Shown here: positions 2,115-64,000 of the stretch, piece by piece
How the letters are laid out: each line of letters opens with the position of its first letter
Numbering within the stretch: position 1 is the first letter of the stretch
Sequence record: PV577658
DNA length: 64,000 bases
Direction: 5' to 3' (one strand)
Origin: Escherichia phage vB_EcoS_MM-2
Notes under the pieces: generated by a model
Databases searched by the model: none
What the model was told of the DNA's origin: nothing
Seen by the model: only the letters and a program-made list of their open reading frames with translations
Program-made: the position numbers and the translations under genes

Positions 2115-2116
2115 AT

Positions 2117-2545: not shown

Positions 2546-2554
2546 GGAGGCAGA

Positions 2555-3538: not shown

Positions 3539-3546
3539 AATTTCAT

Positions 3547-3600
3547 TTGCAAGGGAGTATTATTTTATAGTATAATATTCCCATAAATGAGAGACATTAG
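3547..3600 (+). promoter_or_regulatory. early-type promoter (TTGCAA-18-TATAAT plus conserved downstream box)
   Basis: ttgcaa ... tataat followed by attcccataaatgagag, a variant of the ATTCATAAATTTGAGAG box seen after other promoters in the window. Confidence 0.55.
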
Positions 3601-7365: not shown

Positions 7366-7582
7366 AAAATGGGAAACAAGGAAGTTTCCAGTAAAAGAAC
7401 GTAAAGTTCCTGTTTATGATACTTCGGAGAAGCTATGTAGGGTGGTACCGCACAGATTAGCTGGCATCCCTAACATATCCGAGTGGTTACTTAAACAACG
7501 GAGGACTAGCGTATCCCTTCGCATAGGGTTTGAGTTAGATAAAGTATATGCTGAACTTTCTTCTTTGCTCAAGGAATCGTAA
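7241..7582 (+). CDS. hypothetical protein (likely start at internal Met ~7349)
   Basis: Track ORF; GGAGAG RBS precedes the internal ATG; no motif. Confidence 0.35.
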   Translation: MESNIFLVDEIPRKKPISYTLGELKSCLVNLIPRRDMTVKNKKWETRKFPVKERKVPVYDTSEKLCRVVPHRLAGIPNISEWLLKQRRTSVSLRIGFELDKVYAELSSLLKES

Positions 7583-7590
7583 AAATTTAT

Positions 7591-7650
7591 TTGCATAGTG
7601 CAAAAAATTTCTGTATAATAGATTCATAAATTTGAGAGAGGAGTTTAAAT
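7591..7650 (+). promoter_or_regulatory. strong early promoter of the T5 PN25 type
   Basis: aaaatttatttgcat(-35)..17 bp..tataat(-10) then agattcataaatttgagagaggagttt; matches my recollection of the PN25 promoter used in expression vectors. Confidence 0.65.
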
Positions 7651-8355: not shown

Positions 8356-8599
8356 GCTAACAGATTTGCTTAAGGATGGTGAAACAAAAACCGTGTATCG
8401 TAGAAGCTGGGATAATGACAATAATGGCTTAGTGTTACTAACTTTAGACGCTGACTCAGATGTAGCTACCCAACATACCTGGGTAGCTGGTAATTATCCC
8501 TATAGTGAGGTTGTTACGTTAACAGTATGCGAAGCTATTGCCGACGATTGGGAGATTGCCAGCATTGATGATATGCTTGCTGTTGGCCTGGTGGAGTAA
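8324..8599 (+). CDS. hypothetical protein (likely start GTG ~8348)
   Basis: Track ORF; no motif. Confidence 0.35.
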   Translation: MIKKKENAVSKLTDLLKDGETKTVYRRSWDNDNNGLVLLTLDADSDVATQHTWVAGNYPYSEVVTLTVCEAIADDWEIASIDDMLAVGLVE

Positions 8600-8616
8600 C
8601 TACTGAAAAATTTCAG

Positions 8617-8660
8617 TTGCTTAATCCTATAATTCTTGATATAATATTCTCATAGTTTGA
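8617..8660 (+). promoter_or_regulatory. early promoter (TTGCTT-17-TATAAT)
   Basis: ttgctt..tataat followed by attctcatagtttgaaag, a variant of the downstream box. Confidence 0.5.
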
Positions 8661-8702
8661 AAGAACTATTCTGTTTAATTCTTAATTAAGGAAATATAAA
8701 AT

Positions 8703-9113
8703 ATGACTACTCCAACTCAGTGGACTGATGAACTGTTCGAAAAAATGTCTTCCGAATACGTTGCTCGTATGGAGCAATTCCCAGAGGATGAACGTCCGGG
8801 TGTTAGCATGGAAATTGTTAGCGAAATTGCCCAGGAAAATGGTGTAACTCCGAACGGTTTTCGTATGAAGCTGACTAAAGCAGGTTTGTATATCAAGAAA
8901 GCTGCTGGCTCTGCTTCTAAATCTAGCGCATCTACTGGAGAAAAGGCTTCTGGTGGTTCTCGTACCTCCAAAGCTCAAGCTCATGCCGATCTTCGTTCAG
9001 CATTCTCTGATGCTGGCTTAGCACCGGATTTTCTGGATGATGCAATTATCGATAAACTGACCGGTAAAGCGGCTGCTCATCTGGCAGAAGCAATCCGAGC
9101 TATCACTAAGTAA
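8703..9113 (+). CDS. putative DNA-binding protein with HTH-like module, strongly codon-biased
   Basis: MEIVSEIAQENGVTPNGFRMKLTKAGL resembles the repeated module in ORF 12111..12878; CTG/GCT/CGT-rich codon usage. Confidence 0.4.
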   Translation: MTTPTQWTDELFEKMSSEYVARMEQFPEDERPGVSMEIVSEIAQENGVTPNGFRMKLTKAGLYIKKAAGSASKSSASTGEKASGGSRTSKAQAHADLRSAFSDAGLAPDFLDDAIIDKLTGKAAAHLAEAIRAITK

Positions 9114-9149
9114 TTTTTAGATAAATCCACCAACAAAAGGAACACAGTT

Positions 9150-9446
9150 ATGACCAAAGCTGAAATTATCGCACAATGTGAAAAATTTGGTGAGTTTTAT
9201 CTTCATTACGAGAAACTTCGTCAGAAAGGAACCACGTATCTTCAGGGTACGATGGAATTTGATCCAGCCCAAGATAAATATCTAGCTGAGCGTATTAAAC
9301 GTGAACGTATTCGTAAAGCGAAAGATGATGAGATCCTTGTCTTCTCTCGTACTAATGATAGCTTCCGTTTTATTCCTGTCGAAAAAGTCCGTCGTGTGAC
9401 TAGCCTCCAATCAGAGTTAGATCGTGCTTCTCCAGTAGGCCGATAA
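9150..9446 (+). CDS. hypothetical protein
   Basis: Track ORF followed by a terminator hairpin. Confidence 0.4.
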   Translation: MTKAEIIAQCEKFGEFYLHYEKLRQKGTTYLQGTMEFDPAQDKYLAERIKRERIRKAKDDEILVFSRTNDSFRFIPVEKVRRVTSLQSELDRASPVGR

Positions 9447-9456
9447 GAAACCAATT

Positions 9457-9478
9457 AGCCCCTATATGGGGCTTTTTG
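9457..9478 (+). terminator. rho-independent terminator
   Basis: agcccc-tatat-ggggct hairpin followed by ttttgtg. Confidence 0.6.
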
Positions 9479-9496
9479 TGTATTTGGGATATGTAA

Positions 9497-9805
9497 ATGA
9501 GCGAACAGGTAAATCAAAACTATGAAGGACACGTTGATGACCAGTCCATCATACTTTGGGAGAAGGAGGGAGAACAAGTAAGATTAACAGTATCTGAATT
9601 TCGTGGGAATCTATACATGGGTATTCGTTACTGGCTTCTTGATATTAATGATGAGTGGTTTCCAACGAAATCTGGCTTCTCTTTTCCTTACACCCTAGAA
9701 ACAACATCACAGCTTTTCTATGCGTTTACACAGATTCTTAGCGAATCTGAGGTTTTACATGAAGTACAGAAACGAGCTGAAGAACTCAAAGCCAAGAATG
9801 CCTAG
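9497..9805 (+). CDS. hypothetical protein
   Basis: Track ORF; stop codon lies in the loop of the following terminator hairpin. Confidence 0.4.
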   Translation: MSEQVNQNYEGHVDDQSIILWEKEGEQVRLTVSEFRGNLYMGIRYWLLDINDEWFPTKSGFSFPYTLETTSQLFYAFTQILSESEVLHEVQKRAEELKAKNA

Positions 9806-9818
9806 TTCTTGGCTTTTT
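9791..9818 (+). terminator. rho-independent terminator
   Basis: gccaagaa-tgcctag-ttcttggc (8-bp stem) followed by tttttcttt. Confidence 0.6.
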
Positions 9819-9832
9819 CTTTATAAATGTAC

Positions 9833-9880
9833 TTGCTTTCAACTCAGTTTTGTTATATAATATTTATATAAATTAATGAG
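9833..9880 (+). promoter_or_regulatory. early promoter (TTGCTT-17-TATAAT)
   Basis: ttgctt..tataat then atttatataaattaatgagag downstream box. Confidence 0.55.
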
Positions 9881-9891
9881 AGGGTTGCAAA

Positions 9892-10164
9892 GTGAAAAAG
9901 ATAAGTATAAGTACACTTAAACCTTTCCCGTACATCGGACAGCCTCTTATACTTATGTGGGAGGAGAAGATTAATGGGGAAAAGTATACTAAAACTAGAA
10001 GTGGGTATAAGCTGACTTCACTTCATTACGAAAAAGAAGTATTAGTAGCTGAAATATACTCTCCGTTGTCAGATAGGCTAGTAAAAACTACATATTTGCA
10101 TCGTTGCAAAAATTATACATGGCACGGATCCACTAGACAACCCTCATACTGTGAGGCAGAATAA
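9892..10164 (+). CDS. hypothetical protein (GTG start)
   Basis: Track ORF beginning at gtgaaaaag. Confidence 0.35.
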   Translation: MKKISISTLKPFPYIGQPLILMWEEKINGEKYTKTRSGYKLTSLHYEKEVLVAEIYSPLSDRLVKTTYLHRCKNYTWHGSTRQPSYCEAE

Positions 10165-11136
10165 ATGACCAATGTAAAAGACTTTATTAAACGCTGTCAA
10201 GAAGCATATTATCAAGGTATGTCTTTAATCTCTGACGAAGAATATGATCGTCTGATTAAAAGATTTCCGTTAGAAGAAGAGATCGGGCCTAAGGGCGATA
10301 TTCCACATCTGTATCGTATGTATTCTTTACAGAAAGTTTATTATAATCGTGGAGATAAACCCCCGTTTAACCCATTAGGTCAGGTAGAAACTGATAAGTT
10401 AGATGGTTGTGCAATTTCTCTGTTATATATTAATGGCGAATTTGTTCAAGCACTAACTCGTGGTAACGGTATTCTAGGGAATGATGTCACAAGCAACGTA
10501 AGATTGCTGAACATCCCTAAAAAGATTTCCCAAAAAGTACCTACTCAAATCACTGGTGAAGTTCTAATTACAAAAGAAGTAGAAAATAAACGTAACTTTG
10601 CCTCTGGTGCTATTAACCTCAAAGATAGTGATGATTTTGTACAACGTATCGGAGAAGGTGGTTTAATCTTCGTTGCATATGGTATCCAGTGTTCTGCTGA
10701 ATCTGTAGGTATTACAGAAGCATATTTAAAAGATATGCTTTGGCTGGAGAATGAGAACTTCTTAACAGTTGTTAATGTGCGTTCTTTCTTTAAATGGATT
10801 CCGACGGACGGTAAAGTTGTTCGTATTAATGATAACAACAAATTCTTCCGTGAAGGCTGGACTAATAAATTCCCTCGTGGAGCATTCGCTATTAAAGAGG
10901 ATGAAGAAGGCGAGATTACAACTCTTACTAAAGTTGAATGGCAGGTAGGAGCTTCTGGTAAAGTAACTCCAGTTGGTTATTTCGAACCGGTAATTATTGA
11001 TGATGCTACAATTGTTAAAGCGACTCTTAATAACGTTGATTATATTAACTCTCTTGATCTAGAGATCGGTTGCCAGATTCGAGTGATTCGTGCTGGTGGT
11101 GTAATCCCGTGCATAGTAGAGCGAGTATATGATTAA
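10165..11136 (+). CDS. ligA: NAD-dependent DNA ligase, N-terminal subunit (adenylation domain)
   Basis: KxDG adenylation motif (TDKLDGCAIS), LTRGNG, and LigA-like layout. Confidence 0.75.
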   Translation: MTNVKDFIKRCQEAYYQGMSLISDEEYDRLIKRFPLEEEIGPKGDIPHLYRMYSLQKVYYNRGDKPPFNPLGQVETDKLDGCAISLLYINGEFVQALTRGNGILGNDVTSNVRLLNIPKKISQKVPTQITGEVLITKEVENKRNFASGAINLKDSDDFVQRIGEGGLIFVAYGIQCSAESVGITEAYLKDMLWLENENFLTVVNVRSFFKWIPTDGKVVRINDNNKFFREGWTNKFPRGAFAIKEDEEGEITTLTKVEWQVGASGKVTPVGYFEPVIIDDATIVKATLNNVDYINSLDLEIGCQIRVIRAGGVIPCIVERVYD

Positions 11137-50552: not shown

Positions 50553-52310
50553 TTAGGTAAGGCGTTGAACTGTTACTCTTAATCTAGGTAGAAAAACTGC
50601 ACTACCTAAACTTACGTGCATAACTACCCCTAACTCTACATTTCCATTCCCCAGATTTTTAGCAGTATATATAAAACTATTTCTACTTAGGGCATTGTTA
50701 GGTGTGTATCTAAAAGCAGATGTAGTATGAAAAGGTACTAAATACCCTACTGGTAATGTTAAAATCTGGTGGAATATCGCGTCACCATTACTATAACTAT
50801 ATGCTCTTCTTCCTTGCACCTGAAACACACCGTTATTCCATGTATTAGCAGGGACACCTGCACAGTTAAGATTACCTGATATAACTTCAGTGGTAAGAAT
50901 TACTGTAGCATTGCCACCCGGTATACCTAGCCCAATAGTTGATAAACCAACGTATCTATCTCCTGTTCCTGGGTAGCTGGGGGTAATATCATCTCCCATA
51001 TAAGAACTACCTACATTTCCACCAAAAAGTCGTAATGGAACTGCTGATGGTCCCCAAACAACCCCGTGTTCATTACCGATAGTATTATCATTAGAGTTTA
51101 CGTACCATTGCTTACCAGCTCCGAATTTGTAAATACTAATTTGAGACTTAGCCCCTCCATAGTCCACAGGAGACCATAAACTCCCGTTACTAGAACCTAC
51201 AAGTTCACACCTTGCGGTGGTATCCCCAAAGGCCCCAGTATATGCTGCATTATTTCCAATATATTCCATATCTGGTCTATAACCTAAGTTACCGAAAGCG
51301 TTCTGGTTAATAAACTTGTATCCAGTATTGGGAAGACTAACCCCTTTAATTATGAAATTAGAAGGAGATATAAGAATATCTGAACCAGTAAAAGGATTAC
51401 CAGAGATACTCATACCACCATTTGAGTATCTTAAATTCAAAACGTACCAAATAACTTTAGTAGGAGTTATGTTATACCAATCTTGTAGTATTGTAGAATC
51501 ACCAGATTGATTAGCTAAATTAGTTGTAGAACCCCTACAAACAAACCTATTACCCCCATCATGATACATAGTATTTACATTACCAGGAAGACCTTGTCTT
51601 ACCCCACCATACCCACGTATGTTAGAGTTACAAACATAGAACCAATCGTGCCCTCTGTGTGCTGATCCTAAAGGAGACATCCATCCTGGGTCCCAGTAAT
51701 TTTGGTTATTCCCATCTATAGGTACTGTACTACTATTAGTAGGGAATCCTAACTGTGCAAAAGCTTCTGCAACAGTAACCCCTACTGGAGCTCCTGCACC
51801 TGGCCTAACTATACCATGATACGTACTATGTAGGGTAGTTCCACCAGTACCATTCCTAGAAATAGATTCTTCATGCCCTATAGATGGATTATAGTTATAT
51901 GTACCAGATGCCAGGCTATTACCAAATGCAAATCCACTAGTCTGGGAAACACTAGCAAAAGATCTAAAAGGATCTGCTTGAGTGGCAACTATAGTTTGAC
52001 CCACCTTACTCTGAGTACCATTAAGAAAAGCTCTGTGAGTACCATTAATCTCAATAGCAGTTAATATAACTCTACCAGGATCGTTAGATTTAATATTTAT
52101 TATGTCAGAGGGCATCTGACATACAAAAAACCCATTTCCGGCATTTCCTAACCCAGCCTCATAAGTACCATCAACTAGGACAAATGGCATATCACTATGA
52201 AAAATACTATTGGCATTTGGACTATAGTGACGATTAATGTCACCACCAGATTCAGTATTTAAAGATAGTACGGTCTTACCATCGCTATATTTTCCAGCGA
52301 AAAAACCCAT
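50553..52310 (-). CDS. receptor-binding tail protein (T5 pb5-like)
   Basis: 585 aa, Gly/Asn/Ser-rich beta protein, transcribed divergently from the lipoprotein gene as oad/llp are in T5. Confidence 0.6.
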
Positions 52311-52335
52311 ATAATCTCCTATTATAAAAATGTAT

Positions 52336-52364
52336 TTGCTTTCATCCCTCTATTTTGCTATAAT
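52336..52364 (+). promoter_or_regulatory. early promoter (TTGCTT-17-TGcTATAAT) for the lipoprotein gene
   Basis: ttgctttcatccctctattttgctataat then agattcataaatt box. Confidence 0.6.
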
Positions 52365-52395
52365 AGATTCATAAATTAGAAATGGAGAGATAAAT

Positions 52396-52662
52396 ATGAA
52401 AAAGTTTGTGATTGCACTAGTTGCCGCAGTTATGTTATCTGGTTGTGCACCTGCTCCCAAACCATTTTGTACTGGATTTGTAAAATCTTTTGGTGGTGCG
52501 GGAGAAGAACATTACGGCCTCAAGGTTCAAAAAGTTCGTATTAAGGGAGATCGCTTCCCAGTAGTACAGCTCCGTACTAAGTTTGGATGGTGGGATCTCA
52601 GTCAGTTTGACCTTAAATATGGTGATTGTAAATTTAAACTAGAGCAATCTAACTACATGTAA
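52396..52662 (+). CDS. llp: Llp-type outer-membrane lipoprotein (receptor-blocking superinfection exclusion)
   Basis: Signal peptide with lipobox (MKKFVIALVAAVMLSGC); 88 aa precursor; position next to the receptor-binding gene. Confidence 0.75.
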   Translation: MKKFVIALVAAVMLSGCAPAPKPFCTGFVKSFGGAGEEHYGLKVQKVRIKGDRFPVVQLRTKFGWWDLSQFDLKYGDCKFKLEQSNYM

Positions 52663-52839
52663 TTAGTATAAAGCAAAAAGACATCTAAGTAAACTAAATT
52701 TTTTATTTTTTGGATGGTATATTGGCAGAAACCACTATGTAAGAAAATGAGAAGTCCTTCTAGGAAGTCACAAGCATGGTTGGTTATATACAAATTATAA
52801 AATATTTTAAAATACCATACTCATAGGAGCAAGAAAGAT

Positions 52840-52967
52840 ATGTCAAATAAAAGAAAGAACAGACGCGGAGAAGTGTACGAAGCGTGGATTAATATTTACG
52901 GATTTGGTTTTGTATTATTCCTAATCTTCGTAGGTTTTTGGTTAGCAGCTATGGCGGGGTGGATTTA
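52840..52967 (+). CDS. small membrane peptide (~42 aa), first of a coupled array
   Basis: Hand-translated: MSNKRKNRRGEVYEAWINIYGFGFVLFLIFVGFWLAAMAGWI; AGGAG RBS; stop overlaps next start (TAATG). Confidence 0.4.
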
Positions 52968-53123
52968 ATGGAATGGGTAATTATTGGCATATTCGTCTTA
53001 TTGATACTTCTCTTTGTAGGCTTACGTGTAATAGATACCTCTGTAACCCAAACAGAAATTAAATTAATGCAGTTGAGTAATAGATTATCTAGAATTGAAA
53101 CTTTATTAGAGGAGCGTAAATAA
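52938..53123 (+). CDS. small single-pass membrane protein (likely start at MEW, ~52968)
   Basis: MEWVIIGIFVLLILLFVGL hydrophobic helix then RIETLLEERK. Confidence 0.45.
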   Translation: MVSSYGGVDLMEWVIIGIFVLLILLFVGLRVIDTSVTQTEIKLMQLSNRLSRIETLLEERK

Positions 53124-53230
53124 TGGAATGGGTAATTATTGCACTACTGGGGATTGTGATTATTGGGCAATGTATTTTAGATAATTATTTAGCTAGAATT
53201 GAAACCTTACTATCGGAGAAACGTAAATGA
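53123..53230 (+). CDS. small single-pass membrane peptide (~35 aa), paralog of the previous gene
   Basis: Hand-translated: MEWVIIALLGIVIIGQCILDNYLARIETLLSEKRK. Confidence 0.4.
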   Translation: MEWVIIALLGIVIIGQCILDNYLARIETLLSEKRK

Positions 53231-53421
53231 TGGAAGTGGGAATTACACTAATAGTAATATTAGTCTGGGTAATCCTCATTGTCTCTCGTATAGTGTATCT
53301 CCGCCTAAAAACTCTAGAAGCTCAGGTGAAACAACAACAAGTTATTCTAGAAAAGTTAGTACTACTGCAACGTTGTGATAGCACCCGTATTCTGCAAATT
53401 GAGAGGGAATTAGATGTTTAG
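53227..53421 (+). CDS. small single-pass membrane protein
   Basis: MMEVGITLIVILVWVILIVSRIV hydrophobic helix then coiled-coil-like tail; ATGA overlap with upstream gene. Confidence 0.45.
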   Translation: MMEVGITLIVILVWVILIVSRIVYLRLKTLEAQVKQQQVILEKLVLLQRCDSTRILQIERELDV

Positions 53422-53659
53422 TATTGTAATTGCTTTTATTATCGGGATACTTGCGGGAGTTTTCGGGACAACTGCGGCAATCAACAAGCATCGTAAATAT
53501 ATTGCGGAAGTATCGCGGGAGATTGCGGAAAGGGAGCGGAAGTTTGACGAGAAACGTGCGGAGTTTGAGCGGGAGTGGTCGGACGGATCTCGGGCGTCGC
53601 GGAAGAGATTCCGTGAGTTCAGACCAGAACACAGGTTTGATGACCATTCTATGCGCTAA
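53414..53659 (+). CDS. small single-pass membrane protein with highly charged C-terminal tail
   Basis: MFSIVIAFIIGILAGVFGTTAA helix then Arg/Glu-rich tail. Confidence 0.45.
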   Translation: MFSIVIAFIIGILAGVFGTTAAINKHRKYIAEVSREIAERERKFDEKRAEFEREWSDGSRASRKRFREFRPEHRFDDHSMR

Positions 53660-53770
53660 TTTGACTTTTGCCAAATTTCATAAGATTACACATGGAGGTG
53701 TGTCCAGTGGGTCGGGGGAGAATACTTAGTCTGCTAACCGCCACCCCCCGTTACTATTATCATGGTAATT

Positions 53771-53807
53771 GTTTCACCCTGCAATTAAAATGGTTGCAGG
53801 GTGAAAC
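53771..53807. terminator. bidirectional terminator hairpin (perfect 14-bp stem)
   Basis: gtttcaccctgcaa-ttaaaatgg-ttgcagggtgaaac between the plus-strand peptide array and the minus-strand dmp-like gene. Confidence 0.7.
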
Positions 53808-53824
53808 AATTTCAACTTTAATTA

Positions 53825-54601
53825 TTACGCAACTTTTAATTTCTCGATATATTGTTGCGGGCTGCAACTATATTCTGCGCGTTCTTCCTCGGTCATACCT
53901 TCCCAACATAATTTCAAACGATCAGCTAGGAATTGATAATCATTATCATCATCGAGGGATTCATCAATAAAGGTTTCACCTATCAATGCCACGCCGATTG
54001 ATAGAATATCGTTAACGGCTTGCGCGTCCAGCGTTTTAAATCCGTATGATGCCGCCGCTGATAGTACACCCTTATGATCATCAATCATTGTAAAATCAGC
54101 GTTCGGATATAACTGTTTAAATAATTCAAAATAATAAGATTTATAAACTGCGTCTTTGCTGTGGTATATCTCGCTAACTTTATCAGCCTCAAAATATTTA
54201 TGCAGTGTATCGCGAGAAAACACGCGGATATTACTATCACCACGACCGCGCAAGCCTTGTTTGCGCAAATAATAATAGTCCGACTTGCTCATTAGTCGAG
54301 CGGTACAAATAATGTTTAAAGTATTTGCGTCATTCATGCACTGGCGCATATATGTAACAAGGGGCAATAAAGTATCTTGCATTATTAAATCATGTTTGCA
54401 GGCTTCATTTTTATACTTATTTAAATCTAAATTGCCCTCGCTATCAAAGCAAGGCGCTACACGATGGAAAGAATTAATGATAGTGCCGTCCAGATCCCAA
54501 ATCATGACGCGGGAAATATGCGGGAAATTACGGGTAATATTCATTTTAACTTGATTCATTTTGTTACGTTCTCCATTAAAGGGATTTAGTTTATCCAGCA
54601 T
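53825..54601 (-). CDS. dmp: HAD-family 5'-deoxyribonucleotidase-like protein (T5 dmp-like)
   Basis: HAD motif I MIWDLDGTI; first gene of a minus-strand operon with A1/A2-like genes; likely internal start giving ~244 aa. Confidence 0.55.
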   Translation of the reverse strand: MLDKLNPFNGERNKMNQVKMNITRNFPHISRVMIWDLDGTIINSFHRVAPCFDSEGNLDLNKYKNEACKHDLIMQDTLLPLVTYMRQCMNDANTLNIICTARLMSKSDYYYLRKQGLRGRGDSNIRVFSRDTLHKYFEADKVSEIYHSKDAVYKSYYFELFKQLYPNADFTMIDDHKGVLSAAASYGFKTLDAQAVNDILSIGVALIGETFIDESLDDDNDYQFLADRLKLCWEGMTEEERAEYSCSPQQYIEKLKVA

Positions 54602-54639
54602 TACCCGCTATTTATAAGCGGGTAATAATAAATCAACTA

Positions 54640-55032
54640 TTAAAGACCATAAGCCAACGCATCAGCGATAAAACTAACATCCTCACCGGATACGCTAGAA
54701 CGAATCCCCGCGCAGGTGTATACCTTTGCGCTCGCTAGCTGATCATCAAGGCAAGCGGGGCAAGGCGCGACAACTGCAAAGGCTAGACCAGATTTTACCG
54801 CGTCAATAATGATTGTTTCTTGTTTCATCGTGTCAACATAAACGCCTTTTGCTTTAATATGGCTGGTTAGTTTGCCTTGCGTATAGGCAAAGGTAGTAAC
54901 CTGTAAAGCGTCATTGAAATCTAATAATTCATCAATAACGTGCCCCGCCTCGACGTGGTAACGTTCACCATTAGAATAAACCAGAACAATGGAAGACTGA
55001 GCGCGATCGAATGGAATATTTTGCTTTTTCAT
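54640..55032 (-). CDS. small Cys/His-containing protein, possibly deaminase-like zinc-binding
   Basis: HVEAGH ... PCPAC motifs, but spacing (~70 aa) is longer than in canonical cytidine deaminases. Confidence 0.3.
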   Translation of the reverse strand: MKKQNIPFDRAQSSIVLVYSNGERYHVEAGHVIDELLDFNDALQVTTFAYTQGKLTSHIKAKGVYVDTMKQETIIIDAVKSGLAFAVVAPCPACLDDQLASAKVYTCAGIRSSVSGEDVSFIADALAYGL

Positions 55033-55071
55033 ACTTATAAAACTCCAATTAGTTTAATATAGGGATTTAAT

Positions 55072-55362
55072 TTATTTGATAATAATCTGCATCTGGTACG
55101 GCGTTAATTCACCGTTTACGGGTAAATTATTATCGCTTAGCCACTCATAAAAAGCGCCATCATCATCAAAAGGAACAACATCATTATCACGATAATCGAT
55201 GGAAATAATGCCATCCGTATTAGTTTTGGCGGCTAGGATAGGCCCAAAGCTGTAAACTTTATCGGATTCCATTTCATCCGGTGAGATGAATGCTTTTTCG
55301 TCCAATGTTTTGGGTAATGTAACTTTCATTTTTTGACTCCTGTAATAGCGGCTATATTTCAA
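55072..55362 (-). CDS. hypothetical pre-early protein (likely start at Met ~55329)
   Basis: Track ORF with conserved upstream translation-initiation region. Confidence 0.4.
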   Translation of the reverse strand: MKYSRYYRSQKMKVTLPKTLDEKAFISPDEMESDKVYSFGPILAAKTNTDGIISIDYRDNDVVPFDDDGAFYEWLSDNNLPVNGELTPYQMQIIIK

Positions 55363-55382
55363 GCCGCTAGGGGATAATTTAA

Positions 55383-57047
55383 TTACGCGAAAAATTTACC
55401 GTTTTTAAAGTCAATCAAAGTGCGCTGACCGTTTGCATAGGTAATTAAATGCGTTTGCGTCCAGCTTGACGCGCCAACGTTGTAACCCATATCCAGACTA
55501 CCAGCTACGCCAGCGGTATAAACGCCACCGTAAATGCTAGCGGTATGGGTGTGTCCCGTGTTTAGCTTGCCCAATTTCTTAAACTGTTTAGGATTGCCAC
55601 GACTGCCGTTAATGCCGTTGTGACCGTGTACGCCGCACTCAATGCCTGCAATCTTGAAAGATTGATCAGTGGTTAGGAAAATGGCGTTAAACTCACAACC
55701 TGCAACCTTGCGCAGCGCATAATCTAGCACGTTAAAAGTATCATCATGATCACTGATCGCCGCGTAAATTGCAGCATTCAGGCGGTGATATAGTTCGGCG
55801 TTGGCTGGATCGTCTTTGATGTTAGCATTACGATCATCTAACCAGCGGGATAGCGCCAAATCGTGATTAGATTCAACAATGATTGTTTGAGAGAAATCAC
55901 GTTCCATTGATTCCAGCACGCGCCCCGTATCGATAAGATCATCCAGAACTTTATCACGTCCAGCGGCATACTGTTTTGCTAGGAATACACCGGATGCACG
56001 GTTATGATGATTGCGCGATGTAAAATCATGCACGTCATGGATAAACTGATATTTTGGTTTAAGAATATCAAGCAAGCTATTTTCGCCAGCCCATGACGCA
56101 ACGGCACAATCATCATCTAATTTTTCCGCATGAATATCGCCATACTGCAAGCCTAAAACATGCCCCGATGTTTCATAGCATCCGGCAGGAGTAGCGCAAA
56201 CATTCAGATCATAAAACACCCCGCTTTCGTCCATTGTTTCAAGCTGGCGAACAAAAAATTCCCCGTCCTCGTCGAACTCAACAATCAGCGCGCCGAAGTT
56301 ATGCAGAGCTTCCGCTTTTTGTCCTGCTTTCTGCTGAATATAGTTTTTAAGCGTTGCCGTTCCGGTTGAATACATACGGCGCACTACTTCACCTTTTAAA
56401 GCTGGCACGCTTTCAGCGGTGATTTTAGCGTGACCAATTGCCAGCCCCTCAATATTGAGCGCCGTTGCAGTTTCTGCAAATCCTGAAAGCGGGTAATCTG
56501 CGGTTGGCAAAACATTAATTTCAGCCATGAAAGCAAAACGGCGGTTATTTAAAAACACGTTTTTGCTGCAAATATATTTATCAAATGCGGGATCGTATTT
56601 GATACCGTCTGCACCTTCTTCATTCTGGAAGCCATTTTTATTATAAATATACTTAGAAACAAGCAAATCAGCACCGATATATTCAGCGAATTTTTCCAGA
56701 CTTGCTAAAAAGTTTTTATGCGGGAAAGTATTATTTTGAATCGACGTAATAATAAAGCGTTTACCCTGTTTTACTTCCCATTGCTCAACCGTACTAGAAA
56801 CAATTCCCGCCGCTTCTGGGCGCTCATCGTTTTTAATGGCTTTTGCTACTTTTGCCGCTTTCGGTTTAGCTGGTTTATTTGCTTCCAGCCAGTCGCAGAT
56901 AGCGGTTGAATGCTTCGTTGTATCGTAGACCGCTTTTGATATATCGTCGCAGACTTCCAGTTTAGTAGCGCGCAGACGTTTACCATAGAAATTAAAGTCA
57001 GCGGCCATTTTCAGGATAACGGTTTGTTTTTCTGCGGAAATAATCAT
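55383..57047 (-). CDS. A1: A1-like pre-early protein with calcineurin-like metallophosphoesterase motifs
   Basis: 554 aa; GDIHAE and GHTHTAS metallophosphatase-type motifs; size and context match T5 A1 as I recall it. Confidence 0.6.
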   Translation of the reverse strand: MIISAEKQTVILKMAADFNFYGKRLRATKLEVCDDISKAVYDTTKHSTAICDWLEANKPAKPKAAKVAKAIKNDERPEAAGIVSSTVEQWEVKQGKRFIITSIQNNTFPHKNFLASLEKFAEYIGADLLVSKYIYNKNGFQNEEGADGIKYDPAFDKYICSKNVFLNNRRFAFMAEINVLPTADYPLSGFAETATALNIEGLAIGHAKITAESVPALKGEVVRRMYSTGTATLKNYIQQKAGQKAEALHNFGALIVEFDEDGEFFVRQLETMDESGVFYDLNVCATPAGCYETSGHVLGLQYGDIHAEKLDDDCAVASWAGENSLLDILKPKYQFIHDVHDFTSRNHHNRASGVFLAKQYAAGRDKVLDDLIDTGRVLESMERDFSQTIIVESNHDLALSRWLDDRNANIKDDPANAELYHRLNAAIYAAISDHDDTFNVLDYALRKVAGCEFNAIFLTTDQSFKIAGIECGVHGHNGINGSRGNPKQFKKLGKLNTGHTHTASIYGGVYTAGVAGSLDMGYNVGASSWTQTHLITYANGQRTLIDFKNGKFFA

Positions 57048-57137
57048 AGTAATAAAACTCCATTAAAGGGATTAGATTAATAACGGCAATATTGCCAAAT
57101 ATAACGCCTCAAATAATAGGCGTTATAATTTGCAACA

Positions 57138-57335
57138 TTAATTTAAAGGCACTAGGCTAGAACTAACACCACAAGCAACGGCAGCGATAAAACAAAGCAA
57201 GCCCAAACGTTTTGCTAATTTAGATTTACGTTTAAAATAATATGAATCTAAATCATTTTGAAAATAAGCGAACAATAACGAGGGCGCCATAATAAACAAG
57301 CCTAGAATTAATGATTCAGTAGGATAAAAGATCAT
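57138..57335 (-). CDS. small membrane protein (two predicted TM helices)
   Basis: MIFYPTESLILGLFIMAPSLLFAYF ... LGLLCFIAAVACGVSS; AGGAG RBS. Confidence 0.4.
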   Translation of the reverse strand: MIFYPTESLILGLFIMAPSLLFAYFQNDLDSYYFKRKSKLAKRLGLLCFIAAVACGVSSSLVPLN

Positions 57336-57429
57336 TTTAAAAACTCCTGATTTAAGGGAAGAAAATAACTATCGCTAAACAGTTATATTATTGCCCCCTC
57401 ACTAAAAAAAGGGGGGCAAGGTATAACTA

Positions 57430-57837
57430 TTATTCGCCTGCGGCTTGTTTTACTTCCTCGGCAACGCCTAACAATTGCGCTACTGCGTCCAGCGTTTCAA
57501 GTTTTGCACTTTCAAGGCTTGCCAGATCATCGGCATCTTTGATAATGCCGGAATCGATAGCGTGTTTTGCAATAACGCGTACATAATGAGCTTTGCGGAT
57601 TGAACTACCGCCGCCAACTTTGCGGGGCTTACCGCTTTTTTGATATGCTTTTGCGCTGGTCAATTTTGACCGAACGGATACGGGAGAAGCCGCGCCTACT
57701 GCTTTTGCAATCTCTTTCAGGCCGTCGCTATTTGCGAAATCTAAACCGTTTTCATTAATTAACTGTTGATACATGGAAACAGCTTTCTGAGTGTTTTCTT
57801 CATTCCATGCGAATTTTGCGGTTTTAGCGTTAGTCAT
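57430..57837 (-). CDS. A2: A2-like pre-early DNA-binding protein
   Basis: 135 aa (~15 kDa), basic central region; position upstream of the A1-like gene. Confidence 0.5.
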   Translation of the reverse strand: MTNAKTAKFAWNEENTQKAVSMYQQLINENGLDFANSDGLKEIAKAVGAASPVSVRSKLTSAKAYQKSGKPRKVGGGSSIRKAHYVRVIAKHAIDSGIIKDADDLASLESAKLETLDAVAQLLGVAEEVKQAAGE

Positions 57838-57933
57838 GATGTAACTCCTATTAGTTTAATTTAAGGGATTAGATTAACTTAATGTTAATCGTTATATCCC
57901 CCTGAAATAAGGGGATATAAAGTTAACACTAAT

Positions 57934-58185
57934 TTACAATACAGCTTCCCATTTTTCGTTGCGTTGAACAACCTTTACAACATCGCCGGATTTAACGCGA
58001 ACGCTAAAAACGGGCTTGCCGTTGTTACTACGTTCATTTTCAGCGTATACCGCGTCGATTGTATCGAACGGCATAAGCGCCGCACCTTTAATACGTTCGG
58101 CCTTTCCGGTTAATTCATCCGTTTTAGTAACGAAAGGAATGAAGACGAATTGACCAACTTTCGGCGCGGTAATAACGTTTTGCAT
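57934..58185 (-). CDS. hypothetical pre-early protein
   Basis: 83 aa; first gene of the minus-strand block. Confidence 0.4.
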   Translation of the reverse strand: MQNVITAPKVGQFVFIPFVTKTDELTGKAERIKGAALMPFDTIDAVYAENERSNNGKPVFSVRVKSGDVVKVVQRNEKWEAVL

Positions 58186-58415
58186 AATATAAACTCCTAG
58201 TTATTTGGGGATTGTTCCGCATTACCTGCTAGAAAGTAACAGCAGGTAATAAGTAACAATCCGCTCGCCAATATAATCAATTTTAAAGAACTCCACGTAG
58301 GCCGCTATATCCCGTTAGGGGGCGGGATGCATTATGGTAAGCACCGACCGTCAAATTTTATCAAGTTATCGCTCTTATCGAACTGGGTACATCTTAAAAC
58401 CTATCGGCTAGGTTG

Positions 58416-58619
58416 TCAAACAATTTTTTGCAATTTTTTATGATTTTCTTTTAGGTCAATCATAATATTTCGCCAGATCATTTCCAGACCTTGCTGGCGA
58501 CCTTTCTTGTACTGCGTGAATCTATATCTTACTGATCTTTGAGCTACTGTCAACAAATTTTTTGTTTTGCTATCTAGTGCCTTAATAGGCTTGCCAGTGA
58601 TCAAAAGCGTTTGTTTCAT
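58416..58619 (-). CDS. hypothetical small basic protein
   Basis: 67 aa, Lys/Arg-rich; weak RBS. Confidence 0.3.
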   Translation of the reverse strand: MKQTLLITGKPIKALDSKTKNLLTVAQRSVRYRFTQYKKGRQQGLEMIWRNIMIDLKENHKKLQKIV

Positions 58620-59066
58620 ATCGTCGATTCCTTATAATGAATAAGTTTACCGCCGATAGGCTTTAAGATGTACCCAATTTTTAAAGAGCGTGGCGGTAAA
58701 CTTCCCGCCGTGTAGTTCGTCATTGCCGCCCTACGAGATAAATAATAGGGGATTCCCGAAAATGGCGCAACCTTATTTTTGTAAAGAAATGTAAAGGTAA
58801 AACTCACCGGACACCGTGCGGCGACGGCCTAAAATTAAAAGAAACGGGCGCGCGAATACCACAAAATAAAGCAAATAGGCAAGTAATTTTTTCATTTATA
58901 TTTGCTTTGCCCTACTTGACAAAATCTAAAAAGCTCGTGGTAACGATAAACGGCTTATCCCCTTATGATGGGATGGCTAAAAACTTTATTGCGTTCTGGA
59001 GCGTTTTAGGCGCATTCTAGCCTTGTTGATAACTTATCCCCAAAAGCAAAAATGAAATTTTCCTAG

Positions 59067-59099
59067 TTATCCACTTGACTTTTATTTTCCAGTGGATAA
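59067..59099. promoter_or_regulatory. inverted pair of DnaA-box-like 9-mers around a TTGACT hexamer
   Basis: agTTATCCACTtgacttttattttccAGTGGATAAct; 11-bp perfect inverted repeat, each arm one mismatch from TTATCCACA. Confidence 0.5.
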
Positions 59100-59273
59100 C
59101 TACTTATTTTATGAAATAAATTAATTGACTTTTATTTGTTAGTATGCATCGGAAAGATAGCAGACTAATAATTGCTAGAATGATAATCATGCTGGTGGAT
59201 TGTAACGACCTGAATTATTAGCAGACTATTAATCACGGAAAAATCTCATTAGCCAACTAACTATTTCATGATA

Positions 59274-59300
59274 TATAATATACATATAAATTAATGAGAA
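59274..59300 (+). promoter_or_regulatory. promoter-like element of the early family
   Basis: tataat followed by atacatataaattaatgagaaa box; no convincing -35; no gene for ~430 bp downstream. Confidence 0.35.
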
Positions 59301-59351
59301 ATAATAACTATAAGAAATCATCTAGCTAAGTGAGAACCACTATCATTTAAG

Positions 59352-59372
59352 TTATACACAAAGTTATCCACA
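59352..59372 (+). promoter_or_regulatory. two adjacent DnaA-box-like sites
   Basis: gTTATACACAaagTTATCCACAgc: one perfect consensus 9-mer and one with a single mismatch. Confidence 0.5.
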
Positions 59373-59443
59373 GCACTTTTTGACTTGACACGATAGGCGG
59401 CGATATAAGGACTTTTACACAGACTTATCTACAGGTTATTCCA

Positions 59444-59459
59444 CTGTATAAATATACAG
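59444..59459. promoter_or_regulatory. LexA (SOS) box-like palindrome
   Basis: CTGTATAAATATACAG fits CTGT-N8-ACAG with AT-rich spacer. Confidence 0.45.
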
Positions 59460-59726
59460 GGTAAAAAGGTAGTGTTAACAACTGCAATCAATTTTAAGCG
59501 GCTTAAATCGCATTCTAACGAGCTAAACGCTGCGGGGTAATATTAAAGTAAAGCCTTAATGCGTCGCCCTGGTGGCTTCGCCGTGGTTTGCTCTTTATTG
59601 CACCGCTGCGCGGTTAGCATAAAAATAGGCGCTAGGCAAGGAAAATAAAAAGGTAAAATAATATTTGCCTATGCTAGAAATTTACCTTTATCATTCACTC
59701 ACCGATTAACGAGGGAGGCCGAACAA

Positions 59727-60506
59727 ATGAGGCTTTATAAACCTGATAATGCCACCGTTTTAAAAGGTGCATTGCGCAACCTGCTGGATGGTAGCAAGTC
59801 AACCAGCATTAAACATTTTATTAACAAGATTGAAACTATTCATCAAAACTTTTTTGATGATTATGACGCTTATGATATGGATAGTTTTCTACCCTTATAT
59901 AGACAAGGGGCAACGCTAGTTTTATATAATCGGGATTGCCATATCTTTACAGGCAGGGGAGCGGGGCCGGATACCGATTTTATTGTTGCGCAGGGTAATA
60001 ATATTGTTGCGTATCATAGCAATTCAGGCCGTCAATCATTTAATATAAATAGTTTTGAGCTTATTGGACTTGATCTGATAAATGGACTTTCTAGCATTGA
60101 GGGATTTTTAGATGTTATCTGGAAGTATTTACCCGCTGGATGGCATAAGCCGGATAACGACGGATCTCAATATACCGGTATAATGGCTTTTGATGGCGAC
60201 GGTAATTTTTTGTTACCACGGGAGCTATACCCATATATTTATGATGGGGATATAGAAAGCGCTGGTTTTTCTTTCTGGAAAGATGAAGATCAGATTATTG
60301 ACAGCGTAGAAAACCATGCTGTAAATTCTAACACTCAAAGCGTTAACACTCAAACTACTGAAAACAAAGGAAAAAACACTATGACCAAGATTGCTAACAT
60401 CGTTGCCGCTAATAAATCCGCCGTTGTAAATGCTGCAAAACTGGAAGCGGGTAAAATTGCACTGACTCAAATCACGAAAGTAGCGGCTAAAAAGCACCGT
60501 TCATGA
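59727..60506 (+). CDS. hypothetical protein, 259 aa
   Basis: Track ORF with RBS GAGGGAGG; no recognisable motif. Confidence 0.45.
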   Translation: MRLYKPDNATVLKGALRNLLDGSKSTSIKHFINKIETIHQNFFDDYDAYDMDSFLPLYRQGATLVLYNRDCHIFTGRGAGPDTDFIVAQGNNIVAYHSNSGRQSFNINSFELIGLDLINGLSSIEGFLDVIWKYLPAGWHKPDNDGSQYTGIMAFDGDGNFLLPRELYPYIYDGDIESAGFSFWKDEDQIIDSVENHAVNSNTQSVNTQTTENKGKNTMTKIANIVAANKSAVVNAAKLEAGKIALTQITKVAAKKHRS

Positions 60507-60736
60507 TTAAAGGCTATATTGATACGCCGATTGGTCGAGTAGTGATTGCTAACCTGCTAAGTGTAGCGGTTGACCAGTACGCACCGACTAACCAGAAAGC
60601 GAAAGCGGTAGCAGGGGCGGCTATGGAAGCGGCAATGCTGGAAATGGTGCAAAGTTTTAACATCGCTGAAATGATTGATGAAATGGTGAAAGGTATTGAT
60701 ATTTCTACTTTTACCACTAGCACCGAAATCGAGTAA
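60503..60736 (+). CDS. hypothetical protein
   Basis: Track ORF, ATGA overlap with upstream gene. Confidence 0.4.
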   Translation: MIKGYIDTPIGRVVIANLLSVAVDQYAPTNQKAKAVAGAAMEAAMLEMVQSFNIAEMIDEMVKGIDISTFTTSTEIE

Positions 60737-60801
60737 TAATATTTAGTGGGGATTATTTCCCCACTTTACTACTCCCTTGTTAATTAATAGGAGGCTAACT
60801 A

Positions 60802-61296
60802 ATGGCTGAGGAAAAATACGGCTTCTCGCTAGGAGAAGTGAGCACGGCTAAACATGATATGATCATTTTAGTCGATTGTCATACTGGCTATTGCGGAGAA
60901 GGGAACACCGAAGAATACTTTGTTCCTGCTGGTACGGATCTGGACGCTTTCGCTCATGAAATGGCTATTGATAATGCTTCTCGTTTTGGTAGCGATGGCT
61001 ATGAAGACGAAGAAACTGGCGAATGGTATGAAAATGAAAACGTATATGCAAGCCTTTATCATTATCAGCTAAGTAAATCCGGCACATATGTAAACGGCGG
61101 CGATCCTATTAATTCCGTCATGAAATTAATTATTAAATATGGTGGCGTCGAGATAATTGATAACAAAGCGGTAATATACGCAAACCGATTAAAACAGCTT
61201 GTTTATATTCCTGATAGTACCCGATGGGATGAATACGCTGTTTTGCATGACGAATTGAAACGATGTTTCAATATTGAATCCCTGCAAGTAGTCTAA
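60802..61296 (+). CDS. hypothetical acidic protein
   Basis: Track ORF with RBS AGGAGG. Confidence 0.45.
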   Translation: MAEEKYGFSLGEVSTAKHDMIILVDCHTGYCGEGNTEEYFVPAGTDLDAFAHEMAIDNASRFGSDGYEDEETGEWYENENVYASLYHYQLSKSGTYVNGGDPINSVMKLIIKYGGVEIIDNKAVIYANRLKQLVYIPDSTRWDEYAVLHDELKRCFNIESLQVV

Positions 61297-61323
61297 TGTA
61301 AAGTTTTGTAAAGGTCGCCTTTT

Positions 61324-61632
61324 ATGGTGGCCTTTTTTGTTATAATGCTTTTACACCAAAACGGTGGATTGAAAATTTTCCCAAAAATTTGGAGGCTTAA
61401 AATGGTTGCTTATTCTTCTGCTAGTCATCTGTTTACCGCGCAAGGCTGGGTATCTAATCGTGCTGTCATCTATGAAATGGTGCAGGAGTTCGGCATTGCT
61501 AAAACTTATAATACCATTCAGGAACTATATAACGCCGATAAAATCGATCAGCAAACGGCTGGCTTTTTACTGGATACCCTGAAAGCTGAACATTGCACTA
61601 AAAAACAAGCCGCTAAAATTGTTTTAATGTAA
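61324..61632 (+). CDS. hypothetical protein (likely start at Met ~61402)
   Basis: GGAGG RBS precedes the internal Met; followed by hairpin cggggcg..cgccccg. Confidence 0.4.
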   Translation: MVAFFVIMLLHQNGGLKIFPKIWRLKMVAYSSASHLFTAQGWVSNRAVIYEMVQEFGIAKTYNTIQELYNADKIDQQTAGFLLDTLKAEHCTKKQAAKIVLM

Positions 61633-61681
61633 TTAATAACGGGGCGTTACTTTCGCCCCGATAACTAGGAGGCTATCACAA

Positions 61682-61832
61682 ATGGTTATTTTTCGATCTA
61701 TTTTAGCGGGTATCTTGGGCGCTATTTTATCGTTATTTGCGATAGCTTTCGGCGTTCACGCTGTTATTATTGGCGCTGGCATTGCTGCGTTTTCTTATCT
61801 GCTGGGCTGCATGACTAGTAAAGGAGAATAAA
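61682..61832 (+). CDS. small membrane peptide (~50 aa)
   Basis: Hand-translated: MVIFRSILAGILGAILSLFAIAFGVHAVIIGAGIAAFSYLLGCMTSKGE; AGGAGG RBS. Confidence 0.35.
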
Positions 61833-61833
61833 A

Positions 61834-62046
61834 ATGATCCGCAACGTTTCCCTTGCACGTTCGAAAGGCTTTAAGCTGGTGGATGTTAACACGTTCGAGT
61901 GGGAAGATTGTAAAATCGAATATGTAGCACGTAACAAAAATGCCTTTCGTGTTACCGAGAAAAAATTTGATAAGCGCGGCAACGTGATAGCTGAAACAGT
62001 TAAACATTTTGCCACCTTTTACGCTGCTTTCCGTGGGGTATTATGA
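61834..62046 (+). CDS. hypothetical protein
   Basis: Track ORF. Confidence 0.4.
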   Translation: MIRNVSLARSKGFKLVDVNTFEWEDCKIEYVARNKNAFRVTEKKFDKRGNVIAETVKHFATFYAAFRGVL

Positions 62047-62146
62047 TTCAGCAAATTAAAACGGCTTTTCGTTTTTGGGGCGTCCTGCCTTCAATTGGTT
62101 TTATTCTGATAATTATTAGTCAGCTAATGATCATCGGCGGAACTAT

Positions 62147-62506
62147 TTGGGAGCTATGCAAATGATAATTTATGAAGGCAATCGCTTTGTTGCTAATTGC
62201 CGTCCGGCATTATTAGCAAACTATTTAAACCAGCTTTCCCCAGCTTATAAGGGCGTTATTAATATTTATGAGGGAAAGGCGCATTATAAAATTAATGCGG
62301 TCGTTGCCCGTGAACTAGCATTTCAATTTTTGACCTTTGCATCTTGTGACGTTCAGGTTATGGGTGAGGCATTAATCGCGGAAAATGAAGAGGATTTTAT
62401 TAATATTTTCCGTAAGGTATGCACTGAGCGCTTGATAATGAAAGGCGCGTATATTCAATCAACTGCGGAAAGTATTGAAACAGCATTTCGAAAGGTGGCG
62501 CAATGA
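62147..62506 (+). CDS. hypothetical protein
   Basis: Track ORF. Confidence 0.4.
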   Translation: MGAMQMIIYEGNRFVANCRPALLANYLNQLSPAYKGVINIYEGKAHYKINAVVARELAFQFLTFASCDVQVMGEALIAENEEDFINIFRKVCTERLIMKGAYIQSTAESIETAFRKVAQ

Positions 62507-62606
62507 GATTATATATTTTCGTTGGTAATGTTAAGGCAGCTAATGATTCCGCTGGTGGCGACAACGTTCGCCACCATTGGCAAAAATATATTTACTAGGA
62601 GTTATT

Positions 62607-62711
62607 ATGTCTGGTTTAATGTTTACCTTATTAGTAGTTTATAGCATAATTACGGCAGGAATAGTAACTTATGTTACTAGTAAAATTTGGCCGGGAATAT
62701 ATGGTAATTTT
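62607..62711 (+). CDS. small membrane peptide (~34 aa)
   Basis: Hand-translated: MSGLMFTLLVVYSIITAGIVTYVTSKIWPGIYGNF; RBS AGGAG. Confidence 0.3.
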
Positions 62712-62729
62712 TAATAACGGAGCGTTATT

Positions 62730-62933
62730 ATGAGCAATAAAATTATTGTAACCAAAATCAGTACAATGGTTGATGTTTTTTACGTGCCAGATACGCCGGA
62801 GAATCGGCAAGCGGTCGAGCGGGGCGAATATGATAAAGTGATTTATGATCACGATGGTTATTATCAGTATTTGGTGGATTCCTACGGGGAGGAGGAGAAG
62901 ATCACGCATCGACTACCGGAGGAGGGTTTATGA
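62730..62933 (+). CDS. hypothetical acidic protein
   Basis: Track ORF with RBS ACGGAG. Confidence 0.4.
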   Translation: MSNKIIVTKISTMVDVFYVPDTPENRQAVERGEYDKVIYDHDGYYQYLVDSYGEEEKITHRLPEEGL

Positions 62934-63083
62934 AACGATGGTTTAATCACTGGTACAAGCGGTTTTTAGTACGCCGTCGCAAGTCTAGGCATCAAGATGA
63001 GTGGCGGGAGTGGGCAAAGCGTAACGGTTGCCCGCTACTATAATAATCACGGGGCGCAACTATCGGGAAGTGCCCCCAATTCT

Positions 63084-63106
63084 CAAATGAGAATCATTCT
63101 CATTTG
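63084..63106. repeat. perfect 11-bp-arm palindrome caaatgagaat-c-attctcatttg
   Basis: Core aatgagaatcattctcatt recurs at ~63474 (imperfect) and ~63581 (perfect). Confidence 0.7.
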
Positions 63107-63299
63107 ACCGCGCCCGCGATGGTTAGCCTGCTAATGATTAGGGTGTTACGTGTCGCCTTGTGTGATCGTTAGCGAGCTAACTAATTTTCAAGCCTCCTCC
63201 AATTTTGCCCTTGTTTTAGTATCTCCACCAAAATTAAACGCGTTAGAATGCGATCTAGGACGTTTTAACGCTATATTAGAATTATTCACTGCGTAGGAA

Positions 63300-63319
63300 T
63301 ACTGTATATTTATACAGTA
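63300..63319. promoter_or_regulatory. LexA (SOS) box-like palindrome, 19/20 match to consensus
   Basis: TACTGTATATTTATACAGTA versus TACTGTATATATATACAGTA. Confidence 0.5.
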
Positions 63320-63399
63320 GGATAAGCTGTGATAAGTCTGTTAATAACACCCCAAAATGGCTAGGATTCTGTCAAGTCAAATCGTGCTGTTAATAAGTC

Positions 63400-63408
63400 T
63401 GTGGATAA
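63400..63408 (-). promoter_or_regulatory. DnaA-box-like site (perfect 9-mer on minus strand)
   Basis: tgtggataa is the reverse complement of TTATCCACA; flanked by repeated gataagtctgt. Confidence 0.45.
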
Positions 63409-63426
63409 CTTAAATAATAGTGTTTC

Positions 63427-63600
63427 TCACTTCCGTTCTTAAATACGAATCACTATCATTTGCGTTCCACTTTCTAAATGAGAATCATTCTGCTTTTTAA
63501 AGGAGAATCGTTTCACTTCCTGAATAATTCTCACTTCCATTCTTAAATGCGAATTATTATCATTCTCATTCCGCTTTTTAAATGAGAATCATTCTCATTA
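63427..63600. repeat. two ~70-100 bp imperfect direct repeats carrying the aatgagaatcattctcatt palindrome
   Basis: ctcacttccgttcttaaatacgaatcactatcatt... and ctcacttccattcttaaatgcgaattattatcatt..., each ending in the palindrome core. Confidence 0.65.
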
Positions 63601-63639
63601 TCATTCGCATTCAGGCGAGCAGGGCAATTGCCCTGCGCT

Positions 63640-63760
63640 TTTGTGCAAATCCGACATTGCTCCACGGGTGTTACGTGCGGGCGTGTATGTGCGAATCCCT
63701 GTGGGGTATGTGCAAATCCGACACGGTTTTTCTAGGATTAAGATGTGCGAATCCGACAAG
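63640..63760. repeat. four iteron-like copies of ATGTGC(A/G)AATCC(GACA)
   Basis: tgtgcaaatccgaca, tgtgcgaatccctgt, tgtgcaaatccgaca, tgtgcgaatccgaca at ~20-35 bp spacing. Confidence 0.65.
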
Positions 63761-63770
63761 ATTTTTGTGA

Positions 63771-63960
63771 CTTCGATTGGAGGGTGTGTGATTGTGTGAG
63801 TTTGGGGAGAAGTTGAGAGAGCGAGAAAAATTTGAGGGAACTGCGGGAGGGGCGCATGTTTGGTGCGGAGCACCTGATTTGCGGGGATTTTGGGGAAGAG
63901 TTGAGAAGATTTGGGTTAATTTGAGATTAGTGCAGAAAAAGTAAAATTTTATTAGCTAAA
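63771..63960 (+). other. polypurine, C-depleted tract with repeated (t)ttgag(a/g) motifs
   Basis: Almost no C on the plus strand; gttgagagag, tttgaggg, gttgagaag, tttgagattag; no credible ORF. Confidence 0.5.
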
Positions 63961-64000
63961 TGGAGCAAAATAGCTTGACAAGTGAAAATTCTTGTGGCTC

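Follow-up and report, generated by a model that had tools for sequence, protein, structure and literature searches.

In bacteriophage T5, the left-end copy of the terminal repeat, i.e. the first-step-transfer DNA, is expressed by the RNA polymerase of the host while the remainder of the genome has yet to enter. According to the T5 record annotations and the papers cited here, this left copy enters the cell first, the pre-early genes are expressed, and A1 together with A2 then let the remaining DNA in. The T5 repeats have been described as 10,139 bp long, with dmp, A1, and A2 on the left side and the injection stop signal (iss) on the right (bioRxiv 10.1101/866236). The same study reports dmp, A1, and A2 for 25 of the 25 T5-like phages that were compared, and describes pre-early non-coding repeat regions. 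In the T5 record NC_005859, the first-step-transfer DNA is annotated as the left terminal repeat (LTR; 1-10219), and the right terminal repeat (RTR) starts at 111532. In phage BF23, repeats of 9,743 bp were called from reads using PhageTerm (PMC10644984).

The DNA analyzed here is a 64,000-nt stretch of Escherichia phage vB_EcoS_MM-2 (PV577658), referred to below as the window. When positions 52300-56300 were compared with GenBank phage records using megablast, Escherichia phage vB_EcoS_MM-1 (PV577657.1; 118,039 bp, Tequintavirus) was a 100% match, and another 454 T5-like records matched the same segment with lower identity. A base-by-base comparison showed that window 1-63330 corresponds to PV577657.1 53932-117261 with 0 mismatches, and that 63331-64000 is identical to this record save for two deletions, of 1 and 107 nt, in the repeat array (iss). 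Window position 64000 aligns with the final base of PV577657.1, which is also the final base of its repeat. This near-identity, together with the shared last base, indicates that the window covers the last 64 kb, at the right-hand end, of a T5-like phage genome. The single nt that is missing when compared with PV577657.1 is a G (LTR position 9630; window 63331), and the 107 missing nt (LTR positions 9998-10104; window 63698) amount to approximately three GTGTGCAAATCCGAC-containing units. This 108-nt difference in the iss array is either a real copy-number variation or a repeat collapse in one of the assemblies. A tRNA scan of the whole window found no tRNA.

Alignment with annotated genomes indicates that the boundary between positions 53701 and 53702 is very probably where the right-hand long direct terminal repeat of a T5-like phage (Tequintavirus) has its inner edge. 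The original prediction, which had placed a boundary in 53660-53830 and offered the internal edge of a long terminal repeat as one of two explanations for it, was therefore right on this point. The feature is already known, since the edge of the terminal repeat is annotated in the matching GenBank record and corresponds to ordinary T5 architecture. In PV577657.1, the LTR is annotated at 1-10407 and the RTR at 107633-118039, with record position 107633 equivalent to window 53702. A comparison with the left end of the genome, which had been suggested as a check, found the repeat there in PV577657.1, with 0 mismatches over 10,407 nt between LTR and RTR, two copies that are possibly identical by construction and whose ends may have been placed by homology with T5. 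The duplication is known from that record, and the window holds the right copy, which is 10,299 bp long and has its outer end at the final base of the window.

The edges can also be compared with T5. The segment 53702-64000 is colinear with T5 2-10219, with 86-91% nucleotide identity, and both of its edges are homologous to those of T5. Indeed, the first base of T5 aligns at window 53701, one base off the MM-1 edge (53702), and window 64000 corresponds to T5 10219, where the annotated LTR ends. The distance from the dmp stop codon to the edge is 123 nt in both the window phage and T5. Three separate T5 records (AY543070/NC_005859, AY587007, and AY692264) place the ends at the same bases. To recover relatives from IMG/VR, we used a search anchored on the Dmp protein, which yielded 38 loci and replaced an exact-pattern scan for the hairpin described below that gave 3 contigs only. 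Among these 38 loci, the two-copy genomes start with GTCCAGTGG, TGTCCA or GCCCAG, the equivalents of 53701-53704. In Salmonella phage SIA3lw, the annotated repeat edge is at the equivalent of 53703. A few deposited relatives start elsewhere, 3-16 nt past the dmp stop codon, at positions that look arbitrary. Taken together, these nucleotide-level comparisons show that the 10.3 kb from 53702 to the end of the window corresponds to the segment predicted to occur twice in the virion DNA, once at each end, carrying dmp, A1, A2, and the iss repeats.

We also considered that the terminal repeat could be an artifact of assembly or annotation, in which case this spot would be an ordinary convergent-operon terminator and the genome would end elsewhere. 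Apart from the possibility that LTR and RTR of PV577657.1 were made identical by construction, many T5-like records are collapsed or permuted assemblies (record lengths 105-113 kb), and the window differs from PV577657.1 precisely inside the repeat. However, the ends are at the same bases in the three T5 genome records listed above, a repeat near dmp was already present in X75922.1, the BF23 repeats were determined from reads (PMC10644984), and the window stops exactly at the outer edge of the repeat, as expected of a record ending with the RTR. Considering that several separate T5 records share the end base and that the window stops at this outer edge, an artifact is highly unlikely. The features on either side of the terminal-repeat edge are listed in Table 1.

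Table 1. Features mapped around the predicted inner edge of the right terminal repeat and within the repeat (window coordinates)
Feature	Coordinates	Strand	Basis
Unique-side flank: Cor/llp receptor-blocking lipoprotein gene and five small membrane-protein genes	52396..53659	+	Record annotation; promoter sequence
Moderately conserved island across the repeat edge (AAATTTCATAAGATTACACATGGAGGTGT before the edge, GTCCAGTGG after it)	53671..53710		Conservation in 24 junction sequences
Right terminal repeat (RTR), copy of the first-step-transfer/pre-early region	53702..64000		MM-1 annotation; LTR = RTR; colinearity with T5 LTR 2-10219
First small stem-loop in the repeat, predicted (CGGGGG...TTAG-TCTG-CTAA...CCCCCG)	53713..53750		Fold of 53695-53830
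Hairpin, intrinsic-terminator-like, between the llp operon and dmp	53767..53811	+	Inverted-repeat search; fold; T5 annotation; compensatory changes
Leftward pre-early operon: dmp (53825-54601), A1 (55383-57047), A2 (57430-57837), and small ORFs	53825..58895	-	Annotation; tblastn versus T5
Non-coding repeat region between divergent pre-early operons	58896..59726		No ORFs listed; cluster of DnaA-box-like sites
Rightward pre-early genes, homologs of T5.011-T5.017	59727..63296	+	Annotation; colinearity with T5
Region homologous to the T5 injection stop signal (iss), with direct and inverted repeat arrays	62916..63930		Approximate; mapped from T5 iss misc_feature 9140-10149

At the edge, a + strand operon (52396-53659) and a - strand operon that begins with dmp (53825-54601) are convergent. 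The former is preceded by a strong T5-type promoter (TTGCTT-17-TATAAT, 52336-52364), which lies ahead of the Cor/llp gene and whose T5 homolog is annotated as a promoter. Although this promoter is in keeping with the T5-type early promoters that had been predicted upstream, most of the DNA on that side of the edge is a late structural region (terminase, portal, and receptor-binding protein), not a region of early genes. In five of the IMG/VR loci (L013, L014, L020, L023, and L029), an extra ORF is found on the unique side directly before the conserved edge island. Record annotations suggest that this ORF is apparently an HNH-type homing endonuclease, and the unique-side flank may be a hotspot for the insertion of mobile genes.

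On the repeat side, Dmp, A1, and A2 share 96.5, 93.9, and 98.5% amino acid identity, respectively, with their T5 counterparts as assessed by tblastn, and their order is the same as in T5. In the MM-1 record, the gene at 53825-54601 (- strand) is named "polynucleotide kinase." This name is probably an annotation error because the product is 96.5% identical to T5 Dmp, which is a deoxynucleoside-5'-monophosphatase. Within the non-coding region separating the divergent pre-early operons, a stretch of 410 bp (59024-59433) contains seven DnaA-box-like sites (no more than 1 mismatch to TTATCCACA), a cluster that agrees with the DnaA boxes discussed for T5 (bioRxiv 10.1101/866236). Over the whole window, such sites show no overall enrichment (21 versus 18.9 expected). 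The only two perfect TTATCCACA matches in the window are both inside the repeat, where sites were noted at 59024-59433 and 63400-63408. The terminal-type repeats that had been predicted after the downstream genes correspond to repeat-rich DNA at 63.07-63.77 kb, which is homologous to the T5 iss region.

The predicted boundary was also said to be compositional, with AT-rich DNA upstream. To assess this, we examined the GC change-point at 53701 with block sizes of 0.5-10.3 kb. The GC content is 0.386 before 53701 and 0.402 after it, and, when adjacent blocks of 1-10.3 kb were compared, a difference as large as that at the edge, or larger, was seen at 29-73% of the other positions in the window, i.e. 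there is no bulk GC step. The AT-rich upstream stretch is confined to ~1 kb (52.2-53.3 kb), and the local GC maximum (0.50) is in the 300 bp that lead up to the edge. The interval 53660-53830 is thus a boundary in organization, with convergent operons and the repeat edge inside it, but not in bulk composition.

The genes themselves do differ. In agreement with the GC-richer codons predicted downstream, the per-gene median of third-position GC (GC3) is 0.371 in the repeat versus 0.320 for early genes and 0.259 for late genes, with P = 4e-6 for repeat versus late and P = 5e-3 for repeat versus early (Mann-Whitney, per gene). When genes were pooled, GC3 was 0.262 for late genes, 0.316 for early genes, 0.354 for the llp cluster, and 0.367-0.385 for repeat genes. 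GC3 climbs stepwise with expression time, early and late genes also being different from each other (P = 3e-4). The distinct initiation region that the downstream genes were expected to share was found as well, in the form of a ribosome-binding context that is enriched in leftward pre-early genes: GGAGTT(T) precedes the start codon in five of the ten leftward repeat genes versus four of 79 other genes (Fisher, P = 6e-4).

These properties bear on the second explanation offered in the original prediction, namely that this is the edge of a horizontally acquired block, with foreign DNA inserted beside late genes. A GC3 exceeding that of both late and early genes past the edge, a distinctive ribosome-binding context common to leftward genes, and a unique-side flank whose mosaic make-up differs between relatives (HNH endonuclease insertions, alternative modules) could all be accounted for by acquisition. 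However, bulk GC shows no abrupt shift at the edge, 142 related phage records run across the junction without a break at ~90-94% identity, the region is colinear with the T5 terminal repeat with conserved dmp, A1, and A2 inside, and GC3 is graded by temporal class. Given the first three of these results, which contradict an acquisition, we consider it extremely unlikely. The stepwise order of GC3, i.e. late < early < pre-early, fits expression timing rather than a foreign origin, and the rise in GC3 is a graded trend along temporal class and not a foreign signature. The edge is better read as that of the terminal repeat.

A terminator with a 14-bp stem, described as bidirectional, had been predicted at the junction itself. 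Using an inverted-repeat search, we found a hairpin with a perfect stem of 18 bp (53767-53784 / 53794-53811) and a 9-nt loop (53785-53793), which is located 65 bp into the repeat and not at the junction itself (53701/53702), between the last stop codon of the llp operon (53659) and the dmp stop codon (53825). A consensus terminator scan skipped this hairpin, which is explained by the 8-nt loop limit of the scan. Folded on the + strand, the hairpin has a predicted energy of -33.6 kcal/mol (z = -7.2), and 0 of 200 shuffles were as good. In T5 records, the hairpin is annotated at 69-105 on the + strand as a putative rho-independent terminator (AY587007.1) and as a repeat_region near dmp (X75922.1). 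After the stem, the + strand has a U-rich stretch (UUUCAACUUUAAUUAUU) whose U tract is interrupted; in some relatives, this tail is UUUUAUUUUUAAUU, a clean U run. On the - strand, the tail after the stem (ACCAUGAUAAUAG) is not U-rich, and sequence support for termination of the dmp transcript is absent from it. Because the U-rich tail is on the + strand alone, the sequence does not point to a bidirectional element, and we read this hairpin mainly as a putative terminator of the rightward llp operon, which may also act as a 3' stabilizer for dmp transcripts. An Rfam search of 52300-54700 identified no known RNA family, the match of the hairpin to a microRNA precursor model being a sub-threshold chance match (29.7 bits versus a gathering threshold of 70).

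Among relatives, two unrelated palindromes alternate at the hairpin site, with compensatory changes within each family. In the first family, both partners are changed in four of the 18 pairs, and pairing holds in 89.8% of cells versus 31-49% with a slid partner. In the second family, both partners are changed in three of 11 pairs, and pairing holds in 98.9% of cells. Judging from these compensatory changes, what is kept at this site is the predicted hairpin structure and not its sequence.

The 9-nt loop at 53785-53793 is TTAAAATGG, the exact reverse complement of CCATTTTAA, which is the loop found in T5 and in all 11 other hairpin variants recovered from IMG/VR. The flipped loop, with a fully perfect AATT...AATT stem, was confirmed in Salmonella phage SIA3lw, and identity values suggest that two more of 119 records may carry it. 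This flipped loop looks like the result of a hairpin-mediated inversion.

The edge itself lies in a moderately conserved island. In 24 junction sequences, the majority-base frequency is 0.79-0.83 over 53671-53710 versus 0.58-0.66 upstream and 0.62 just downstream. Where the small stem-loop stands in the window, relatives hold alternative palindromic modules such as GATGAGAATGAGTCTCATTA. Pairing of the G run with the C run at 53713-53750 was rejected as a conserved stem, since relatives use different partners or modules. In the T5-like loci from IMG/VR (L011-L047), the equivalents of 53711-53811 show that the ~110 bp from the edge to dmp are made of interchangeable modules, the first small palindrome occurring in three or more versions and the main hairpin in two unrelated ones, in varied combinations. 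In one locus (L033), for example, the first palindrome is of the second version and the hairpin of the first.

A possible, but rather doubtful, reading is that the edge island (53671-53710) and the two stem-loops together form a T5-type terminase recognition/cleavage signal. Among relatives, the two stem-loops retain their folding even where the sequences have been exchanged or inverted. On this reading, the flipped loop would be the trace of an inversion, arising from a cruciform or by template switching, at a site where the DNA itself is processed and which does not serve solely as an RNA terminator. The left and right repeat edges share no motif as assessed by local alignment (score of 10 versus a shuffle mean of 9.9), and none of the searchable papers was found to define where the T5 terminase cleaves.

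A mechanism can be proposed for the terminal-repeat edge. The edge would be the site of a sequence-specific terminase cut on replicated concatemers, which would make the mature left end, and the conserved ~40-bp island across the cut would be part of the terminase signal. The 18-bp hairpin would mainly terminate transcription of the rightward llp operon, which otherwise would run antisense into dmp in the right-hand copy, and the same hairpin might give dmp transcripts a stable 3' end. The higher GC3 of the repeat genes may reflect their temporal class, i.e. that they would be translated first, before the phage tRNA genes enter.

These findings fix the genome ends for the window, with the repeat edge at 53701/53702 and the genome end at 64000. 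They also indicate that a terminal-repeat edge is detectable from gene organization and codon bias alone, notwithstanding a flat bulk GC. The GC3 gradient, the structure-conserving replacement or inversion of the hairpin, and the edge island might help define the T5 packaging signal.

When compared with the closest described systems, the window phage has the same RTR start as vB_EcoS_MM-1, at the equivalent of window 53702, but its repeat is 10,299 bp versus 10,407 bp in the MM-1 record. With T5 (NC_005859/AY587007/AY692264), it shares the position of dmp relative to the edge, the alignment of both repeat ends, and the presence of the hairpin (69-105 in T5). The gene order is also shared, i.e. 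dmp, A1, A2, the divergent non-coding repeat region, the T5.011-017 homologs, and the iss repeats. The differences are that the repeat is 10,139-10,219 bp in T5 records versus 10,299 bp here, that the T5 hegG homing endonuclease is absent from the window phage, that there are several G/C swaps in the first 20 nt past the edge, and that the hairpin in the window has a loop inverted relative to T5 and a fully perfect stem. As for the intrinsic (rho-independent) terminators found between convergent operons, the hairpin resembles them in its perfect G+C-containing stem, its U-rich stretch on the + strand, and its convergent-gene setting. Unlike typical intrinsic terminators, it has an unusually long stem (18 bp), an interrupted U tract, and no U tract on the - strand, and in the left-hand copy it would lie <110 nt from the physical end of the DNA.
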